Origin: Planctomycetota bacterium
GTDB taxonomy: Bacteria; Planctomycetota; B15-G4
Direction: 5' to 3'
DNA length: 64,000 nt
Assembly (NCBI GenBank): GCA_038212275.1
Contig: JBBQUR010000009.1
Coordinates: 1 to 64,000, forward strand
The stretch's first letter is position 1. Each line of letters opens with the position of its first letter. A program made the translations under genes and the position numbers. This document shows, one piece after another, positions 6,270-11,862 of this stretch. The notes beneath the pieces were generated by a model, which saw only the letters and a list, made by a program, of their open reading frames with translations, was not told where the DNA came from and did no database searches.

Positions 6270-6349
6270 GGCTCGCCAACACGCCGGTGGGCTCGCCAAC
6301 ACGCCGGCGGGCTCGCGAACGGTGCCGCTGGCTCGCGAATGGCGAGAGC
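6270..6349. repeat. Four 20-bp-period direct repeats (GGCTCGC[C/G]AA core) in the lat/gpx divergent intergenic region
   Basis: ggctcgccaacacgccggtg, ggctcgccaacacgccggcg, ggctcgcgaacggtgccgct, ggctcgcgaatggcgagagc. Confidence 0.85.
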
Positions 6350-6510
6350 CACCCCGGGAATCGGTGCCGCCGCAGGGAAGCCGCCAGCCTTGGCCCGAAA
6401 CAGGCGCTAACGTAGGCGCCCAGTCGGCACCTTCCGCCGGCCCCTGTCTCCGCCGCGCGCCTCGGGGCGCGGGGCCCGGCGGTGTCGCCTCGATTCCCTG
6501 GAGTTTCCCC

Positions 6511-7191
6511 ATGCGCCATGCCCTGACCCGCCTCGTGCTTCCGCTCGTGATCGCTGCCGTCGGCGCGCCGGGCTGCACCTCGCACGAGTCCGGCCCGTTC
6601 ACGTACACGATCGACGGCGGGCATCCCGCCGAGTCCGCCACCGCATCCACGACCGAGAACCCGACCACGAAGGAGGAGCCCATGACGTCCACCGCCCCGT
6701 CCCCGCTGCCCGCGAGCTTTCACGCCCTGAAGACCAGCACGCTCGATGGCAAGCCGGCCAACCTCGGCGACTACAAGGGCAAGGTGCTGCTCGTCGTGAA
6801 CACGGCGAGCGAGTGCGGCCTCACGCCGCAGTACGCCGGCCTCGAGAAGCTGCACGAGGAGCTGAAGGCGAAGAACTTCACGGTGCTCGGCTTCCCGAGC
6901 AACGACTTCGGCGGCCAGGAGCCCGGCACGCCGGAGCAGATCCAGACCTTCTGCAGCACGAAGTACAGCGTGACCTTCCCGCTGTTCAACAAGGTGCAGA
7001 CCAAGGCCGGCGAGGGCCAGTCGCCGATCTACACCTGGCTCAATGACAAAACCGGCTCGCTTCCACGCTGGAACTTCGGCAAGTACGTGATCGGCAAGGA
7101 CGGCACGACCGTCGCGTTCTTCGACAGCAAGGTCGAGCCGAACGACCCTGCGTTGCGTGCCGCGATCGACAAGGCGCTCGCAGCGAACTGA
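6511..7191 (+). CDS. Glutathione peroxidase family protein (Cys form) with putative lipoprotein leader; alternative start at 6682
   Basis: GKVLLVVNTASECGLTPQY, VLGFPSNDFGGQEPG and RWNFGKY motifs; leader MRHALTRLVLPLVIAAVGAPGC; AGGAGG at 6671-6676 before the internal ATG. Confidence 0.92.
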   Translation: MRHALTRLVLPLVIAAVGAPGCTSHESGPFTYTIDGGHPAESATASTTENPTTKEEPMTSTAPSPLPASFHALKTSTLDGKPANLGDYKGKVLLVVNTASECGLTPQYAGLEKLHEELKAKNFTVLGFPSNDFGGQEPGTPEQIQTFCSTKYSVTFPLFNKVQTKAGEGQSPIYTWLNDKTGSLPRWNFGKYVIGKDGTTVAFFDSKVEPNDPALRAAIDKALAAN

Positions 7192-7252
7192 TCAAGCCGA
7201 AGAACTTCACCGCCCCCGGAGCCGCGTCGCGCGCTCCGGAGGCGGCGTGCTC

Positions 7253-8650
7253 TTACGCTGCGTCGATTCCGAACCACGCTGCGACTTGCCGAGGGTCCTC
7301 GGAGATTTCTTCAGCGAAGCGTGGCACCTCGAATCGGATCAGCTCAAGTACGTAGTCGGATGGAGCAGCCTTGAGGAAGCCGCCGAGGCGAGCGCACGCT
7401 GATCGGAAGCCGGCGCGGTTCTTGAGGTGACAGTGCGCAACGGCCAAGTTGAAGAGCAACTGCCAGTTGTTGGGTTGGTCCTGAAGGATCTGTTCGCCAA
7501 GCGAGATTGCTTCGATGTGTTTGTCCTGCTTGGTCAGTGCGAGCATGAGATTCACCTGCCCATGCACACGCATCTCCGCAGGCAGGGGCCGAGCGAGGAG
7601 TGCCCGAAGCTGGGTCTCGGCGCGATCGGGATGTCGCCTGAACATGTGTATTTGAGAGATGCAGAGCGCATGCCGCGGCGTGGCGCCCTCCAATCTTTCC
7701 AGCACCCGCAGGCAACTGGCGGCGGCGCGCAACGCTTCTGAAGGCGAAGGCGCCTCTGATGGAACTCCGGTCAGGTCCACCGGAGCGGGGGCCGTCTCGC
7801 GGTGTCGCACCAGGTGCCGCAGTTCTCGCGCGACAAGCGGCGTCTCGCGCGGCTCGACGACGCACTGGATGCGACGCTGAATGTTGGGCACTTGCATGAG
7901 GGATGCCTTTGCCAGTTCGTAGGCGAGGTCCGCGAGGCGGCTCATGCCGTACGTCTGCTCGGACGGCGATCCATCCGTGTTCGTCATGGTGACGGCGTGT
8001 GCAGCAATGGCGGCAGCGAGGCGAACTCGCGCCTTGCGGATTCGACGCAGCGCCATCGGCTCGCGAAGCCCTGTCCTGCGTGCGATTTCCCCGGGCGGCA
8101 CGAGATCGACGTCTGCCGCCAGCAGCAGGAGTCGATCGTCGGTACTCAGGTCGTGAAAGGCGTGATTCACGACGACCAGGAAGTGGTCTCCGACTTGCCT
8201 CGAACCGGCGAGAGCGCGCACGTGCCCATGCGCATCGACGGGCAGGAGATCGGGGCGTGGCTCGCCACGGGCTGTGGCAGCGCGCAGTGATTCGAGGCGC
8301 TGCGCAGCGAGTCGGCGCATCGCGGCCTCAGCGGCGCCCAGCACATCGGGCTCGTCAACGGCCGGATTGCGCAGGTCAGTGAATACCTCGGCCAGGTGAT
8401 CGGCTAGGAGCTGGGTCGCGGGAAGTGCGAGTCCGAGTTCCCGCGTGAGCGAGTGGGCGACTGGCAGCAGCGGTGCTTCAAGTAGCAGTATCAACCTGCG
8501 GAATGCATCCAGGTCATTCGACTGAAGAAAATGCAGGCGCAGACGGCGTGCCTCGCGATTCACGTCGGCACGATTTGTCGCAGACGGACGACTTGACCCT
8601 GGCTCCAGGTGCTCGTGATCCGGTTCGCTGTCCAACCCTGAATCCGTCAT
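7253..8650 (-). CDS. Fused divergent ECF-sigma-like protein with C-terminal TPR-like domain
   Basis: N-half aligns with 10251..10970 (region-4-like LSTDDRLLLLAADVD...IARRTGL...RRIRKARVRL); C-half aligns with residues ~93-320 of 9259..10254 (ADLAYELAKA...NLAVAH...FEVPRFA). Confidence 0.7.
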   Translation of the reverse strand: MTDSGLDSEPDHEHLEPGSSRPSATNRADVNREARRLRLHFLQSNDLDAFRRLILLLEAPLLPVAHSLTRELGLALPATQLLADHLAEVFTDLRNPAVDEPDVLGAAEAAMRRLAAQRLESLRAATARGEPRPDLLPVDAHGHVRALAGSRQVGDHFLVVVNHAFHDLSTDDRLLLLAADVDLVPPGEIARRTGLREPMALRRIRKARVRLAAAIAAHAVTMTNTDGSPSEQTYGMSRLADLAYELAKASLMQVPNIQRRIQCVVEPRETPLVARELRHLVRHRETAPAPVDLTGVPSEAPSPSEALRAAASCLRVLERLEGATPRHALCISQIHMFRRHPDRAETQLRALLARPLPAEMRVHGQVNLMLALTKQDKHIEAISLGEQILQDQPNNWQLLFNLAVAHCHLKNRAGFRSACARLGGFLKAAPSDYVLELIRFEVPRFAEEISEDPRQVAAWFGIDAA

Positions 8651-8733
8651 CGTGGAATCGCCATAGTGGCCGCGCGATGTCCTTTCGCACGACGCGACTG
8701 CCGCGTCAGCGTCAGGGCGTGCGGCGCAAGACG

Positions 8734-8763
8734 ACAATAGGTCCGAGGGCGGCTTGAGGTCAA
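8734..8763 (-). promoter_or_regulatory. sigma70-like promoter for the fused sigma-TPR gene
   Basis: TTGACC-N18-TATTGT on the minus strand, about 84 nt upstream of ATG 8650; same geometry as the promoter at 11056-11085. Confidence 0.6.
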
Positions 8764-8840
8764 GTCGGGCTCGGAGCAGTCGTACAGGTCGCCACTCGGC
8801 CGCGGGATGGTCGTTGTACCGACCGGTGACTACTTCAAGG

Positions 8841-9269
8841 TCAGGGCACGATGATCAGGACCGACTGGCCCGCGATCACACTGATCCCCGCGACGTTCTC
8901 GTCCGGCAGTGCCAACTCCAGATTCGGCAACTTCGGAAGATCCACGACGAAGAGACCATTCTCATCGGTGACCGCCACTCCCACGACGCCAATCGCCGGA
9001 TGCGTCACGACGACAAGCGTGCCGGCGATGACGGCACGCTGCGCGTCGAGCACCTGGCCAAGCGTGGGAGTCACGAACTGCTGAACAATCCCCACGTGCG
9101 TACTCGGCGGCCCGACGAAGGGCAGGACGCCGCCTCCGTCGGGGCCAGCTGATTTCTTGCGCGGATTGCTACTGCTCTGAATGCTTCCGGCGATGATGCT
9201 CGCCGAGACAGCCACGAGCGCAAGCAAGACCGTCAGTGGTTTCAGTCTGCGTGATTTCTCAGGATGCAT
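8841..9269 (-). CDS. Small exported or membrane-anchored protein with one carboxypeptidase-regulatory-like beta-sandwich
   Basis: AAGGAG RBS; hydrophobic N-terminus LTVLLALVAVSASIIAG; GQVLDAQRAVIAGTLVVV...AVTDENGLFVVDLP motif; start overlaps the end of the upstream gene. Confidence 0.7.
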   Translation of the reverse strand: MHPEKSRRLKPLTVLLALVAVSASIIAGSIQSSSNPRKKSAGPDGGGVLPFVGPPSTHVGIVQQFVTPTLGQVLDAQRAVIAGTLVVVTHPAIGVVGVAVTDENGLFVVDLPKLPNLELALPDENVAGISVIAGQSVLIIVP

Positions 9270-10254
9270 CGCGACGGCTCCTTCGTGCTGTGACGAGGCC
9301 GAAGCACTTGGCAACCTCTTCAGGTTTGATGGAGAGTTCAGCGGCAAAGCGTGGAACCTCGAACGCAAGCAAGTCACGCAAGTAGCTGCTAGGTGACAAG
9401 GAGACGAGCTTGGCCAATCGGCCGCTGATGTCCGTGAAGACTCGACGGTTCTTAAGGTAGGCATGCGCTACGGCAAGGTTGTAGAGCACCATCCATTCGT
9501 CAGGACCGTTCAGCAGCGCCCTTTCCCCGATCGCCGCGGCATCCGAGTACTTCTCCTGTCGGATGAAGGCGAGCATCAGGTTGCTCCGCGCATATTGCTG
9601 CATTTGTGGAGAGAGTGGCTGCTCAAGCAGTGAGCGCAGCGCTTGCTCGGCCTTTTCCGGCTGCTTCTTGAAGATGTGCACCTGCGACATGCCCAGCACT
9701 TGCCTCGGCGAGGCGCCTTCCACGTTCTCGAGGATGTGCAGGCAGCTTGCGGCGGCGCGCAGGGCGTCGGCCTCGGCGGGGGCCACGGCGGGCACGCCCT
9801 TCATGTCCAGCTTGGTGGACTTGGGGTCGCGGCGCTGGTGGGCGGTGCGCAGTTCGCGGGCGACGACGGGGGCTTCGCGCGGTTCGACGACGCGGCGGAC
9901 GCGGCGCTCGAGGTTCGGGAGCTGGATCAGGCACGCCTTCGCCAGCTCGTAGGCGAGGTCGGCGAACTTGCTCGTGCCGGAGCGCGCGGCGACGCGCAGG
10001 ATGCTCTCCACGGCGGTGCCGTCGCCAGCGCTGCCAGGCTCCGACGCGAGCTGAGATACGGCGTCGCCCTGGAGTTCGAGCGCGTGCAGCGCCGAACTGC
10101 ACGGCCCGCAGCTCGCGATGTGCGCGGCCAGGTCGCTCGTCGGCGCGGCTCCCTTGCGGCGCGCTTCGAGCGCGTTCTCGTAGGCGGCCTGGGCCTGCGC
10201 GCCGGTCATGCCGCACGCGTCCTCTGCGGGCTTCTTCTTGCGTGGGGGCGTCAT
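9259..10254 (-). CDS. Zinc-finger (ZAS, HxxxCxxC) anti-sigma-like protein with C-terminal TPR-like repeats, no obvious TM segment
   Basis: HIASCGPC at residues 45-52 plus Cys14; ATGA overlap with the upstream sigma-like gene; TPR-like helices (NLMLAFIRQEKYSDAAAIGERAL...VLYNLAVAHAYL). Confidence 0.72.
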   Translation of the reverse strand: MTPPRKKKPAEDACGMTGAQAQAAYENALEARRKGAAPTSDLAAHIASCGPCSSALHALELQGDAVSQLASEPGSAGDGTAVESILRVAARSGTSKFADLAYELAKACLIQLPNLERRVRRVVEPREAPVVARELRTAHQRRDPKSTKLDMKGVPAVAPAEADALRAAASCLHILENVEGASPRQVLGMSQVHIFKKQPEKAEQALRSLLEQPLSPQMQQYARSNLMLAFIRQEKYSDAAAIGERALLNGPDEWMVLYNLAVAHAYLKNRRVFTDISGRLAKLVSLSPSSYLRDLLAFEVPRFAAELSIKPEEVAKCFGLVTARRSRRDAS

Positions 10255-10970
10255 GCGCGTCGCATTCTACCCGTGCTTCCGGGTGGATCCCTGTCGCTGT
10301 TCGACAGGCTGATGAAGTGTGCGGCGATCGCCGCGGCCAGGCGTACGCGCGCCTTGCGCAGCCGACGTTTCGCCATCGAGTCGCGCAGGCCGGCGGTGCG
10401 CGCCAGCGCGGCGAGCGGCGTGCCATCGACGTCGGCTGCGAGCAGCAGGCACCGGTCGTCCTCGCTCAGGTCATGGAAGGCGTGGTTGGCGACGACGAGG
10501 AATCGCACGCCGAGGCGGCCGGGCCCGGCGAGCGCGCGCATGTGTTCGTGCGCATCTTCGGGCAGCAGATCCGGGCGTGCCTCGCAGCGCGCGGTCGCGT
10601 CCCGGAGCGCGTCGAGCCGCTGCTGCGCGAGCAGGCGCATCGACTGCTCGGCGGCGCCAAGGACGTCGGGCTCGTCGACGACCGGGTCGCGAAGGTCCGT
10701 GAAGATGCCGGCCAGGTGGTCGGCGAGCAGTTGCGAGGCGGGGAGCGCGAGGCCGAGCTCGCGGGTGATGCGGTGCGCGACAGGCAGCAGCGGCGCTTCG
10801 AGGGCCAGCACGAGTTGCCGGAACGCCGAGACGTCGTTGCTGCGCAGGAAACGGAGTCGCAGTTCGCGGGCCTTGCGGTTCAGCTCGGCGCGCGCCGCAT
10901 CGATCGGACGGCGGGGCCGTCGCGGCTCGCGCCCGCGCTCCGGTTGGCTGCCCATGTCTGCGTCCGACAC
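10251..10970 (-). CDS. Divergent ECF-type sigma factor-like protein
   Basis: Region-2-like SNDVSAFRQLV...LLPVAHRI and region-4-like AFHDLSEDDRCLLLAADVDGTPLAALARTAGLRDSMAKRRLRKARVRL; canonical DAED motif absent; GTG start at 10970 chosen by alignment to the paralog. Confidence 0.65.
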   Translation of the reverse strand: MSDADMGSQPERGREPRRPRRPIDAARAELNRKARELRLRFLRSNDVSAFRQLVLALEAPLLPVAHRITRELGLALPASQLLADHLAGIFTDLRDPVVDEPDVLGAAEQSMRLLAQQRLDALRDATARCEARPDLLPEDAHEHMRALAGPGRLGVRFLVVANHAFHDLSEDDRCLLLAADVDGTPLAALARTAGLRDSMAKRRLRKARVRLAAAIAAHFISLSNSDRDPPGSTGRMRRA

Positions 10971-11055
10971 CGCACTCTCGCCCGCGTGGTTGCGCGATCC
11001 ATATCCCGAGGCTGCCCGTCTCCCGCGCCGGAGAGAGGCCGGAACGACGACGCTC

Positions 11056-11085
11056 ACGATAGTGCGGCCTTCCGGAGAAAGTCAA
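11056..11085 (-). promoter_or_regulatory. sigma70-like promoter for the sigma/anti-sigma operon
   Basis: TTGACT-N18-TATCGT on the minus strand, about 86 nt upstream of GTG 10970. Confidence 0.6.
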
Positions 11086-11145
11086 GCGCGGACGTCCGCC
11101 CCATCGCAGAATTCAGCGGCCTGGACGGGGAGCCCCGCGCCTTGC

Positions 11146-11721
11146 CTACCAGCCCTCATCCGGGTCGGGCACGTCGCCGCGAAGCATTTCGATGTCGAGC
11201 TGGTCCCGCAGCGCCTTCGACCGCCTGCGGCGCGGATCGGCAGCGGCCCGCTGCTTCAGCGCGATGAGGTCCTCGCGCCGCACGATACGCACCGTCCTGC
11301 CTGCAAACGGATGGCTCTCGGCTCGCTCGATCGCGGCGTCGAAGAACGGATCGAAGGCGACCTGCACGGGGTCGCCCGATGCGTGCAGCAGGTTGACGCT
11401 GTGCTCGAACCGCCCGCGCAGCGTGAACCCCGCCGCGAGGAAGTGGGCGATGACGAGCTCGCGGTCGACACTCGAAAGGACCGCGAAGTTGACATCGATG
11501 GCGGCGCTCGGGAGCCGTGTGTGAACGGCCACCGCCAGCCCGCCGATCAGCGCATGCGCCATGCCGGAACGCTCGAACACTGCGGCTGCGTCGGTCAGCG
11601 CGCGCTCGAGCGAGGATGGCTCGGACACGGCACCGCCACCCCAGGCGCCGGACACGAGGTTTCTGTCGCGTGCCGTGAGCGCCGAGACGATCCGGATGAT
11701 CTCTGCCGCTGAGCGATCCAT
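11146..11721 (-). CDS. Nucleotidyltransferase-fold protein (AbiEii/MNT-like), possibly degenerate
   Basis: HALIGGLAVAVH...AIDVNFAV and VRIVRREDLIALKQRAA...DQLDIEML motifs; start uncertain (ATG 11721 or GTG 11628). Confidence 0.7.
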   Translation of the reverse strand: MDRSAAEIIRIVSALTARDRNLVSGAWGGGAVSEPSSLERALTDAAAVFERSGMAHALIGGLAVAVHTRLPSAAIDVNFAVLSSVDRELVIAHFLAAGFTLRGRFEHSVNLLHASGDPVQVAFDPFFDAAIERAESHPFAGRTVRIVRREDLIALKQRAAADPRRRRSKALRDQLDIEMLRGDVPDPDEGW

Positions 11722-11862
11722 GGCCGCCAGCCTAGCAGGTGGCGGCGTGCGCTCCCGGCCGGACCTTCGGCGCGCCGGCGGGGGCGCGCTCGCCTTGAAC
11801 AGCAGACCCGAACCCCGCAGCGTCGCGGCCACCGTTCCCGCGGCGCCGCGACCTTGGTCCCC

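Follow-up and report, generated by a model that had tools for sequence, protein, structure and literature searches.

A lineage-specific ECF-type σ factor module of planctomycetes found at one locus in a split state and in a fused state without its zinc-motif domain

Here, we analyzed a locus of the genome of an uncultured planctomycete at which two versions of one extracytoplasmic function (ECF)-type σ factor module lie side by side, one split over separate genes and one fused into a single gene. The locus is part of a stretch of 64,000 nucleotides (the window; positions 1 to 64,000 of contig JBBQUR010000009.1, assembly GCA_038212275.1) and comprises four open reading frames (ORFs), all present on the minus strand where the initial annotation had placed them (Table 1). 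In the split version (copy A), a σ-like gene is coupled by an ATGA overlap to a partner gene for a zinc-motif and tetratricopeptide repeat (TPR) protein (stop codon of the σ-like gene, 10253-10251; start codon ATG of the partner gene, 10254-10252), and a gene follows for a small protein whose hydrophobic N-terminal stretch predicts, as first proposed, that it is exported. The fused version (copy B) lies 190 bp from this split module in the same operon region.

The two halves of B align without gaps to the two genes of A. Residues 27-238 of B match residues 27-238 of the σ-like protein A, with 147 of 212 positions identical (69%; E = 2e-95), and residues 235-462 match residues 93-320 of the partner (114 of 228 identical, 50%; E = 3e-67). 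B runs collinear with A up to the penultimate residues of A and continues at residue 93 of the partner, skipping exactly partner residues 1-92, which bear the pattern C-x30-H-x3-C-x2-C. These alignments bear out the central claim of the initial annotation, namely, that one module is present at the locus both as two genes and as a single gene and that the single-gene form is without the zinc-motif domain of about 92 residues. The junction it described is present in the fused ORF, but its position has to be corrected from 7945-7990 to 7937-7969, slightly further downstream.

Table 1. Coordinates of the genes, domains, and promoter-like sites of the locus in the window
Feature	Position	Strand	Remarks
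σ-like gene A	10251..10970	-	239 amino acids; divergent ECF-type σ2-σ4 protein
Partner gene	9259..10254	-	Zinc-motif N terminus, then TPR domain
Partner, N-terminal 92 residues	9976..10254	-	Putative zinc-type anti-σ domain; C14, H45, C49, C52; motif at 10099-10122
Partner, TPR domain	9259..9975	-	Residues about 94-331; soluble, no membrane segment
Gene for small exported protein	8841..9269	-	142 amino acids; third gene of the module, conserved
Copy B, whole ORF	7253..8650	-	465 codons, single reading frame, no internal stop
Copy B, N-half, σ-like domain	7982..8650	-	Residues 1-223
Copy B, C-half, TPR domain	7253..7960	-	Residues 231-465
Copy B, fusion junction	7937..7969	-	Residues 228-238 of B
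Promoter-like site 5' of gene A	11056..11085	-	TTGACT, 18 nt, TATCGT
Promoter-like site 5' of copy B	8734..8763	-	TTGACC, 18 nt, TATTGT

Judging from its sequence, we take B to be a maintained gene with a promoter-like site of its own. The ratio of nonsynonymous to synonymous substitutions (dN/dS) between the homologous halves of the two copies is 0.205 in the σ part and 0.34 in the TPR part, which indicates the purifying selection that the initially suggested comparison of the copies could reveal, although these ratios are rough because dS (1.06-1.24) is near saturation. In the family alignments, B keeps all family-invariant residues. Two σ70-like sites were found in positions 7000-11400, compared to 0.3 expected from shuffles, and when the regions upstream of the two genes are aligned, both hexamers and the start codons fall in register, with the GTG start of A at 10970 opposite the ATG of B. 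In a syntenic contig from a close relative (L032), the same promoter-like pattern has its sole match in 7.5 kb just upstream of the σ gene, and among all σ-upstream regions, only those of the window (A and B), locus L014, and L032 carry it; the pattern is characteristic of this sub-clade, not of the whole family.

The N terminus of the partner looks like an anti-σ domain, because it combines a zinc motif, a fourth cysteine, a fixed position before the TPR domain, and translational coupling to the σ-like gene. The HxxxCxxC motif noted in the initial annotation is present as H45-x3-C49-x2-C52, and together with C14 it has the form of the zinc-binding anti-σ (ZAS) motif, that is, H-x3-C-x2-C with a fourth ligand about 20-35 residues upstream. 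Across the family, 32 proteins have H-x3-C-x2-C at a distance of 45-58 residues (median, 49) from the TPR domain that follows it, and 25 of them have a cysteine 20-36 residues upstream of the motif histidine; the motif occurs in none of the 117 family proteins of other classes. The rows of the alignment of motif-bearing proteins (A2) were chosen by the motif, so that its invariance there is circular; the upstream cysteine and the fixed spacing are not.

The rest of the partner consists of TPRs. A profile of the partner matched only TPR proteins in the PDB, consensus TPR proteins among them, and residues 226-465 of the model of B have a predicted TPR fold, with VIA-align Z scores of 14.3 to 12 to 2xpi_D, 2pl2_B, MamA, PilF, PlcR, and Rap. 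Partners and fusions are soluble according to hydropathy, a hydrophobic window of 1.6 or more being found in 1 of 65 proteins. In these 65 proteins, the TPR domain is always either fused to a σ-like domain or encoded right after one, and the zinc motif is present in 32. Within this set, the TPR domain is evidently the constant companion of the family's σ factor, with the zinc domain facultative. The source annotation of the partners reads "hypothetical protein." In one natural fusion (P0078), σ-like, zinc, and TPR domains form one chain, which was modeled with a mean predicted local distance difference test score (pLDDT) of 81 and a predicted template modeling score (pTM) of 0.56.

The assignment of A and B to the ECF σ factors is indirect. 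Neither is among the 47 matches to TIGR02937 found in their genome at an E value of up to 1e-10, and the sequence of A alone yielded a single, chance-level match to solved structures. Three paralogs from the same genome, P0005, P0006, and P0007, pass both Sigma70_r4_2 (27.3, 44.1, and 34.9 bits; cut-off, 25.7) and, over nearly the whole model, TIGR02937 (54.5, 52.0, and 52.7 bits; cut-off, 42.9), with the TIGR02937 match of P0007 covering positions 1-164. The window clade aligns with P0007 in hhalign with 98.9% probability (E = 3e-17) over 188 columns that span σ2 and σ4, the pattern expected of ECF σ factors, which are without σ3 and σ1.1. Likewise, the σ profile of the family (A3, 41 sequences) matches the solved ECF σ factors 6in7_B (E = 3e-9), 5zx2_F, 1or7_A, and 9m9d_F, and it matches 9isn_F and 4nqw_A over the full length. 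Because their own scores are below threshold but they are homologous over σ2-σ4 to paralogs that pass, we regard A and B as divergent members of an ECF-type family rather than as certified ECF σ factors. The σ identity first proposed for them is thus supported indirectly, through homology to P0007, whereas their direct Sigma70_r4_2 matches stay below the cut-off.

The AlphaFold model of B, built from a 120-row alignment (mean pLDDT, 90.4; pTM, 0.71), agrees with the σ fold expected of its N-terminal domain in that residues 27-223 are predicted to form a four-helix and a five-helix bundle, with helices at 27-128 and 140-223 mostly above a pLDDT of 90; confidence falls to about 65 at residues 221-230, near the junction. 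A Foldseek search with this model gave no match at an E value of up to 1e-3. B retains the region 4 helix-turn-helix; the RN signature of region 2.4, which is kept in the more canonical paralogs, has been lost from the clade to which A and B belong. All 47 TIGR02937 matches mentioned above, which come from a six-frame search of a 4.65-Mb genome (91% complete), lie above the cut-off, a very large ECF complement for a genome of this size.

To place the locus among its relatives, we searched 1.84 billion representatives with a profile of B and five fused paralogs, which gave 1,288 matches at an E value of up to 1e-3, of which 152 reached 1e-10 and 62 reached 1e-30. The 150 best matches, together with the proteins in hand that had a domain match, made up a set of 160 classified proteins, from which one shorter-start version of the partner (P0011) had been dropped. 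This set comprises 84 proteins with the σ-like part only, 30 split partners with and 18 without the zinc motif, 11 TPR fragments, six B-like fusions with a short linker, two fusions that keep the zinc motif between σ-like and TPR domains (P0078 and P0087), and nine fusions whose linker is at least 40 residues long, although four of these nine rest on partial σ matches and may in truth have a short linker. Beyond this locus, the same genome carries an older fusion (P0005, contig C2) and, on contig C3, a split copy that lacks the zinc motif. The arrangement, which had been set apart as unfamiliar, is therefore not singular, since fused and split forms recur in the same genome and family.

The module is restricted in its distribution. 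With B as the query, we found a match in 14 of 15 genomes of the window's family, compared to none of 25 genomes from four other families of the order, and with the partner profile at an E value of up to 1e-15, scoring seven candidates per genome, 8 of 301 genomes sampled from the phylum matched, namely, the window's own genome and all seven others sampled from its family (0 of 293 in other families). Ten records were named, nine of them Planctomycetota or Phycisphaerales metagenome-assembled genomes and one labeled Pseudohongiellaceae; one fusion comes from a genome labeled Sericytochromatia. Both split and fused forms thus occur across one family-level planctomycete lineage, as the synteny comparison suggested in the initial annotation was meant to reveal. 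Loci of the window type, with a σ-like gene, a TPR partner, and a small exported protein, number eight, including L032, and homologs of the small gene lie directly 3' of the TPR partner in L011, L012, L013/L022, L014, L015/L028, L031, and L032. A second type of locus, represented by contig C2, combines a fused σ-TPR gene, another exported protein, and a second σ-like gene in seven genomes, in three of which a further TPR partner follows. In this lineage, the tandem of a fused copy and a separate σ factor is thus an old, conserved design, and in the window, it has been built anew from a zinc-type module. Among 5.8 billion clusters (8,000 candidates scored), no close fused relative of B was found; of the five proteins at an E value of 1e-3, one was B, and the others each matched a single half. 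A scan of metagenomes with B alone found nothing, and with the partner alignment it found one contig, L032. Directly 5' of the fused gene on contig C2 lies a σ-like ORF cut to 147 amino acids, the σ2 part (2477-2920 of L009, genome G000), and similar σ fragments lie upstream in L019/L027 and L024; they may be remains of another duplication.

Phylogenetic trees give the change from split to fused a direction. In the TPR tree (60 rows), B and four split partners with the zinc motif make up a starred clade, and in the careful TPR tree (13 rows), the clade of B and these partners received 94/96. In the σ tree (81 rows), a starred clade groups B with three stand-alone σ factors; in the careful tree, this clade received 100/100. 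Because both halves nest among split, zinc-motif-bearing modules, the fusion and the loss of the motif in B are, by these trees, derived. This agrees with the initial suggestion that the locus is a snapshot of how a TPR-extended σ factor arises. The six short-linker fusions require five changes on the TPR tree, with at least four forced by starred branches, and the five entered in the σ tree also require five, again with at least four forced; fusion therefore arose at least four times in the family, and that of B separately from the old clade of long-linker fusions. Natural intermediates exist in the two fusions that keep the zinc motif and in the long-linker fusions. The latter, like the motif-less partners, retain a helix equivalent to the last one before the TPR domain, and B is without even that.

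The syntenic contig L032 offers a view of the locus in a relative. It has the σ-like gene, the zinc-TPR partner, the exported protein, and the same glutathione peroxidase gene as the window but no fused copy, in whose place lie a transposase gene and a second paralog of the exported protein. The transposase gene (3508-4749 of L032, DUF772) is at the position matching copy B. The intergenic place that copy B occupies seems to be a rearrangement hot spot.

In kind, the parts of this module are already known, since both σ/anti-σ pairs and ECF σ factors that carry regulatory extensions have been described. RsrA and ChrR are soluble zinc-binding class I anti-σ factors. Like them, the partner has H-x3-C-x2-C with an upstream cysteine, is cytoplasmic, and is encoded directly downstream of and overlapping with the σ-like gene; unlike them, it has a C-terminal TPR domain of about 230 residues and no zf-HC2 match, and relatives do without the zinc domain entirely. 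The general statistics on class I anti-σ factors come from PMC7406223. A zinc-type anti-σ factor with a TPR-CHAT part is described in the DdvA/DdvS system of Myxococcus xanthus (PMC11506125). The partner resembles DdvA in joining a zinc-type anti-σ domain and TPRs in one protein paired with an ECF σ factor, but DdvA spans the membrane and has its TPR-CHAT protease part in the periplasm, whereas the partner is soluble and ends after its TPR domain; domain scans listed no CHAT match for the window partner or its relatives.

On the side of the fused copy, the closest parallel in architecture is ECF42, in which a C-terminal TPR extension of about 200 amino acids is needed for activity (PMC8999054; PMC7826278). 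B likewise has an ECF-type σ2-σ4 core followed by about 230 residues of TPR and no co-encoded anti-σ factor of its own, and a C-terminal TPR extension is predicted at residues 226-465 (Z, 12-14.3). A language-model search placed DUF6596/ECF42-type clusters among the neighbors of B at 0.84-0.85, which we treat as a lead only. DUF6596, which we take to mark ECF42, is found in 98-100% of the members of four listed σ factor clusters (417-478 amino acids). It gave no match at an E value of up to 1 in B or its paralogs and none in their genome (91% complete), and there was no YCII-type gene among the scanned neighbor genes. We rejected ECF42 as the home of the family, since the extensions do not share DUF6596; the family also differs from ECF42, which is found mainly in Actinobacteria and Proteobacteria, in its lineage and in having an extension that can be traced to a separate partner gene. 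The planctomycetal ECF57, described with an extension of about two transmembrane helices and a conserved cysteine pair in σ2 and σ4 (PMC7826278), was rejected as well, given that only 1 of 65 proteins has a hydrophobic window of at least 1.6 and that the σ alignment A3 has no invariant cysteine.

Some regulatory ECF extensions have been proposed to stem from an ancient fusion with an anti-σ factor, with members of ECF36 cited (PMC8999054). P0078 and P0087, with σ-like domain, zinc domain, and TPR in one chain, resemble these fusions, and B would be further along the same route. ECF36-type fusions are membrane proteins and old, group-wide traits, whereas the present family has split and fused states side by side, even within a single locus, and the putatively inhibitory part is deleted. 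Neither a soluble zinc-TPR anti-σ factor nor such a fusion series was found in the excerpts of the ECF literature searched, which included the tetratricopeptide passages of the PMC7826278 supplement. The initial annotation did not recognize a described ECF group here, and these excerpts hold no matching description, but the family may belong to an already described group. Its interest lies in the fact that known examples of anti-σ-derived ECF extensions are old and fixed across whole groups, whereas this family presents the whole series in living genes: the split state with the zinc domain, fusions that include this domain, fusions that retain no more of it than its last helix, and direct fusions. 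With the same σ core and TPR domain but a difference in the putative clamp, A and B form a controlled comparison for asking what a TPR extension does without the inhibitory domain. The module itself, made up of a σ factor, a TPR partner, and an exported protein, would be an uncharacterized signaling unit present in multiple copies in the searched genomes of one planctomycete family.

We consider the split and fused states of this lineage-specific ECF-type module to be real, and infer the following mechanism. In the explanation we prefer, to which as a whole we give a probability of roughly 0.55, the locus would be a tandem pair of paralogous ECF-type σ modules from a family of one Phycisphaerales-labeled planctomycete lineage. 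Copy A would represent the ancestral three-gene form, with a divergent ECF σ factor, a soluble zinc-TPR partner whose N terminus is a zinc-motif, class I-like anti-σ domain placed before the TPRs, and a small exported protein. B would have come from such a module by a deletion that removed the last σ codons, the overlapping stop and start codons, and the whole 92-residue zinc-motif domain, and that joined the σ-like domain in frame to the TPR domain. Soluble zinc anti-σ factors clamp their σ factors. By analogy, A may be a sequestered switch of the zinc/thiol type, in which the zinc domain clamps the σ factor and a protein or ligand signal enters through the partner's TPR domain; the TPR domain would thus be the constant σ partner, acting as a sensor or regulator, and the zinc domain an optional clamp. 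B would then be a clamp-free σ factor with its activity under the control of the attached TPR domain, as in other ECF σ factors whose C-terminal extensions are regulatory. Because the A/B alignment shows near identity in the predicted recognition helices, the two copies may serve similar promoters under different inputs, so that together they would provide two inputs to these promoters.

Several observations count against this explanation. On the σ side, A reaches only 19.7 bits with Sigma70_r4_2 (cut-off, 25.7) and 16.3 bits with TIGR02937 (cut-off, 42.9), B reaches still less with Sigma70_r4_2 (13.8 bits; cut-off, 25.7), and the window copies miss every curated σ threshold; a profile of the window clade alone had no match in the PDB at an E value of up to 1, and the fold-search lists for the model of B, that of VIA-align included, were filled with TPR proteins. 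On the anti-σ side, the ZAS-type Cys/His pattern initially proposed for the partner is present, but the corresponding Pfam match is not: zf-HC2 matches 2 of 28 partners (best E = 7e-4) and, at an E value of up to 1, not the window partner. The model of P0078 gives no clamp geometry, as its residues 303-332, after the zinc motif, have a pLDDT of 39-50. As for the history of B, the near-saturated dS given above makes the selection estimates rough, the trees are compatible with B as the sister of A, a relation not rejected (approximately unbiased test, P = 0.154 and 0.284), or as the sister of the module of a relative, and the G+C content at third codon positions (GC3) is lower in B (0.70 compared to 0.82-0.85). 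B may therefore have originated elsewhere and been inserted later. In addition, no RNA run was listed among the sequencing runs that hold the sequence.

Among the alternatives, the plainest is that the fused reading frame is a chimeric join made by the assembly, a concern raised by the origin of the sequence in a metagenome-assembled genome. A separately built Logan contig of 3,728 nt from run X1 covers positions 7000-10005, crossing the junction with zero differences at an even depth of about 25, and shows no insertions, deletions, or supported alternative joints there; run X1 is the sole run to cover the junction and possibly the source sample itself, so that it checks the assembly rather than the biology in an independent sample. 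Run X2, another sample of the same study, yielded short pieces only, none of them across the junction. Since B and A are 61-70% identical in nucleotides over the whole length, with about 30-40% of positions different, B is not a chimera of reads from A, and misassembly, which the initial annotation had named as a risk, has next to no probability left. (A joint of 8031 to 9033 in the sequencing runs, with 20 letters on its shorter side, was set aside as a repeat or another organism.) It is also highly improbable that B is a recent fusion accident without function that is heading for decay. Such a fate would fit its end branches, which exceed those of its nearest relatives two- to sixfold in length (0.24 compared to 0.10-0.13 in the σ part and 0.90 compared to 0.15-0.48 in the TPR part), its lower GC3, its absence from the syntenic place in L032, and the lack of a close fused relative in the cluster search, but the 465 codons are free of stops despite the near-saturated synonymous divergence from A, the dN/dS values are 0.2-0.34, the promoter-like site is kept, the model is confident, and independent fusions of the same kind have been kept in other lineages.

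The alternatives that accept B as a working gene concern what it does, and we find each of them unlikely. B may not mainly be a σ factor but a decoy or partner switch, whose σ-like domain binds the zinc-TPR partner of A or whose TPR domain binds the σ factor of A. PhyR-type anti-anti-σ factors are σ mimics, and in their manner B would titrate the inhibitor. Its σ-like domain is close to that of A (71% identity) and without a clamp of its own, the region 2.4 RN signature is lost in the A/B clade, and the window copies score far below the σ thresholds; moreover, a fused copy and a separate σ factor form a conserved tandem at the C2-type locus of seven genomes, and because such a pair arose again independently in the window, the two forms may work together. 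Yet this divergence is common to A and B and does not single out B as the mimic, and the region 4 helix-turn-helix is conserved in B. A constitutive B, always on, controlled only by its own promoter, and keeping its TPR domain for another job, such as contact with an exported-protein pathway, would account for the σ70-like promoter site and for the absence of every helix of the anti-σ region, including the last one kept by long-linker fusions and motif-less partners. We doubt this reading too, as the TPR half of B is under purifying selection (dN/dS, 0.34) with family-invariant residues kept, and as the TPR domain is attached to or beside a σ factor in every architecture, which argues for a σ-directed role. 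A bolder and likewise improbable idea is that the lineage has twice evolved a two-σ circuit, in which a σ factor joined to the TPR sensor cooperates with a separate σ paralog from a neighboring gene. In the window, the clamp-free B, as sensor or decoy, would determine how much zinc-TPR inhibitor is free and hence how active the σ factor of A is; this would be a partner switch free of phosphorylation, built from a σ duplicate, with the Gly-rich exported protein as its output or signal.

The exported proteins of both module types share Gly-rich repeats of the form G-x-[DE]-G-x-G-x-L-P, with one repeat in the window protein (8841-9269), about six in that of L032 (5103-5744), and about nine in that of L028 (6153-7508); the protein of L009 (4822-5463) is of the same kind, and all end in a hydrophobic stretch that closes with V-P. 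The small exported protein of the window has a sub-threshold match to CarboxypepD_reg (25.4 bits; cut-off, 32.3), and in the ECF reclassification supplement, domains of this type are mentioned beside ECF54, ECF57s3, and FecI-like σ factors (PMC7826278). The module is flanked convergently by a glutathione peroxidase gene with a long N-terminal extension (window 6322-7191, plus strand; GSHPx, 111 bits), and the same gene flanks the module convergently in L032 (5818-6726). As a thiol-peroxide enzyme beside a switch of the zinc/thiol type, its product could belong to the regulon of that switch, or the adjacency could be due to chance. The gene 5' of the σ-like gene A (window 11146-11832, minus strand) has weak nucleotidyltransferase matches, to DUF2204 (21.6 bits, just above the cut-off) and AbiEii (below the cut-off). 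Finally, G+C is 0.64 in window positions 7000-10000, compared to about 0.70 in the flanks, with the G+C-poor parts being B and the TPR and exported-protein genes.

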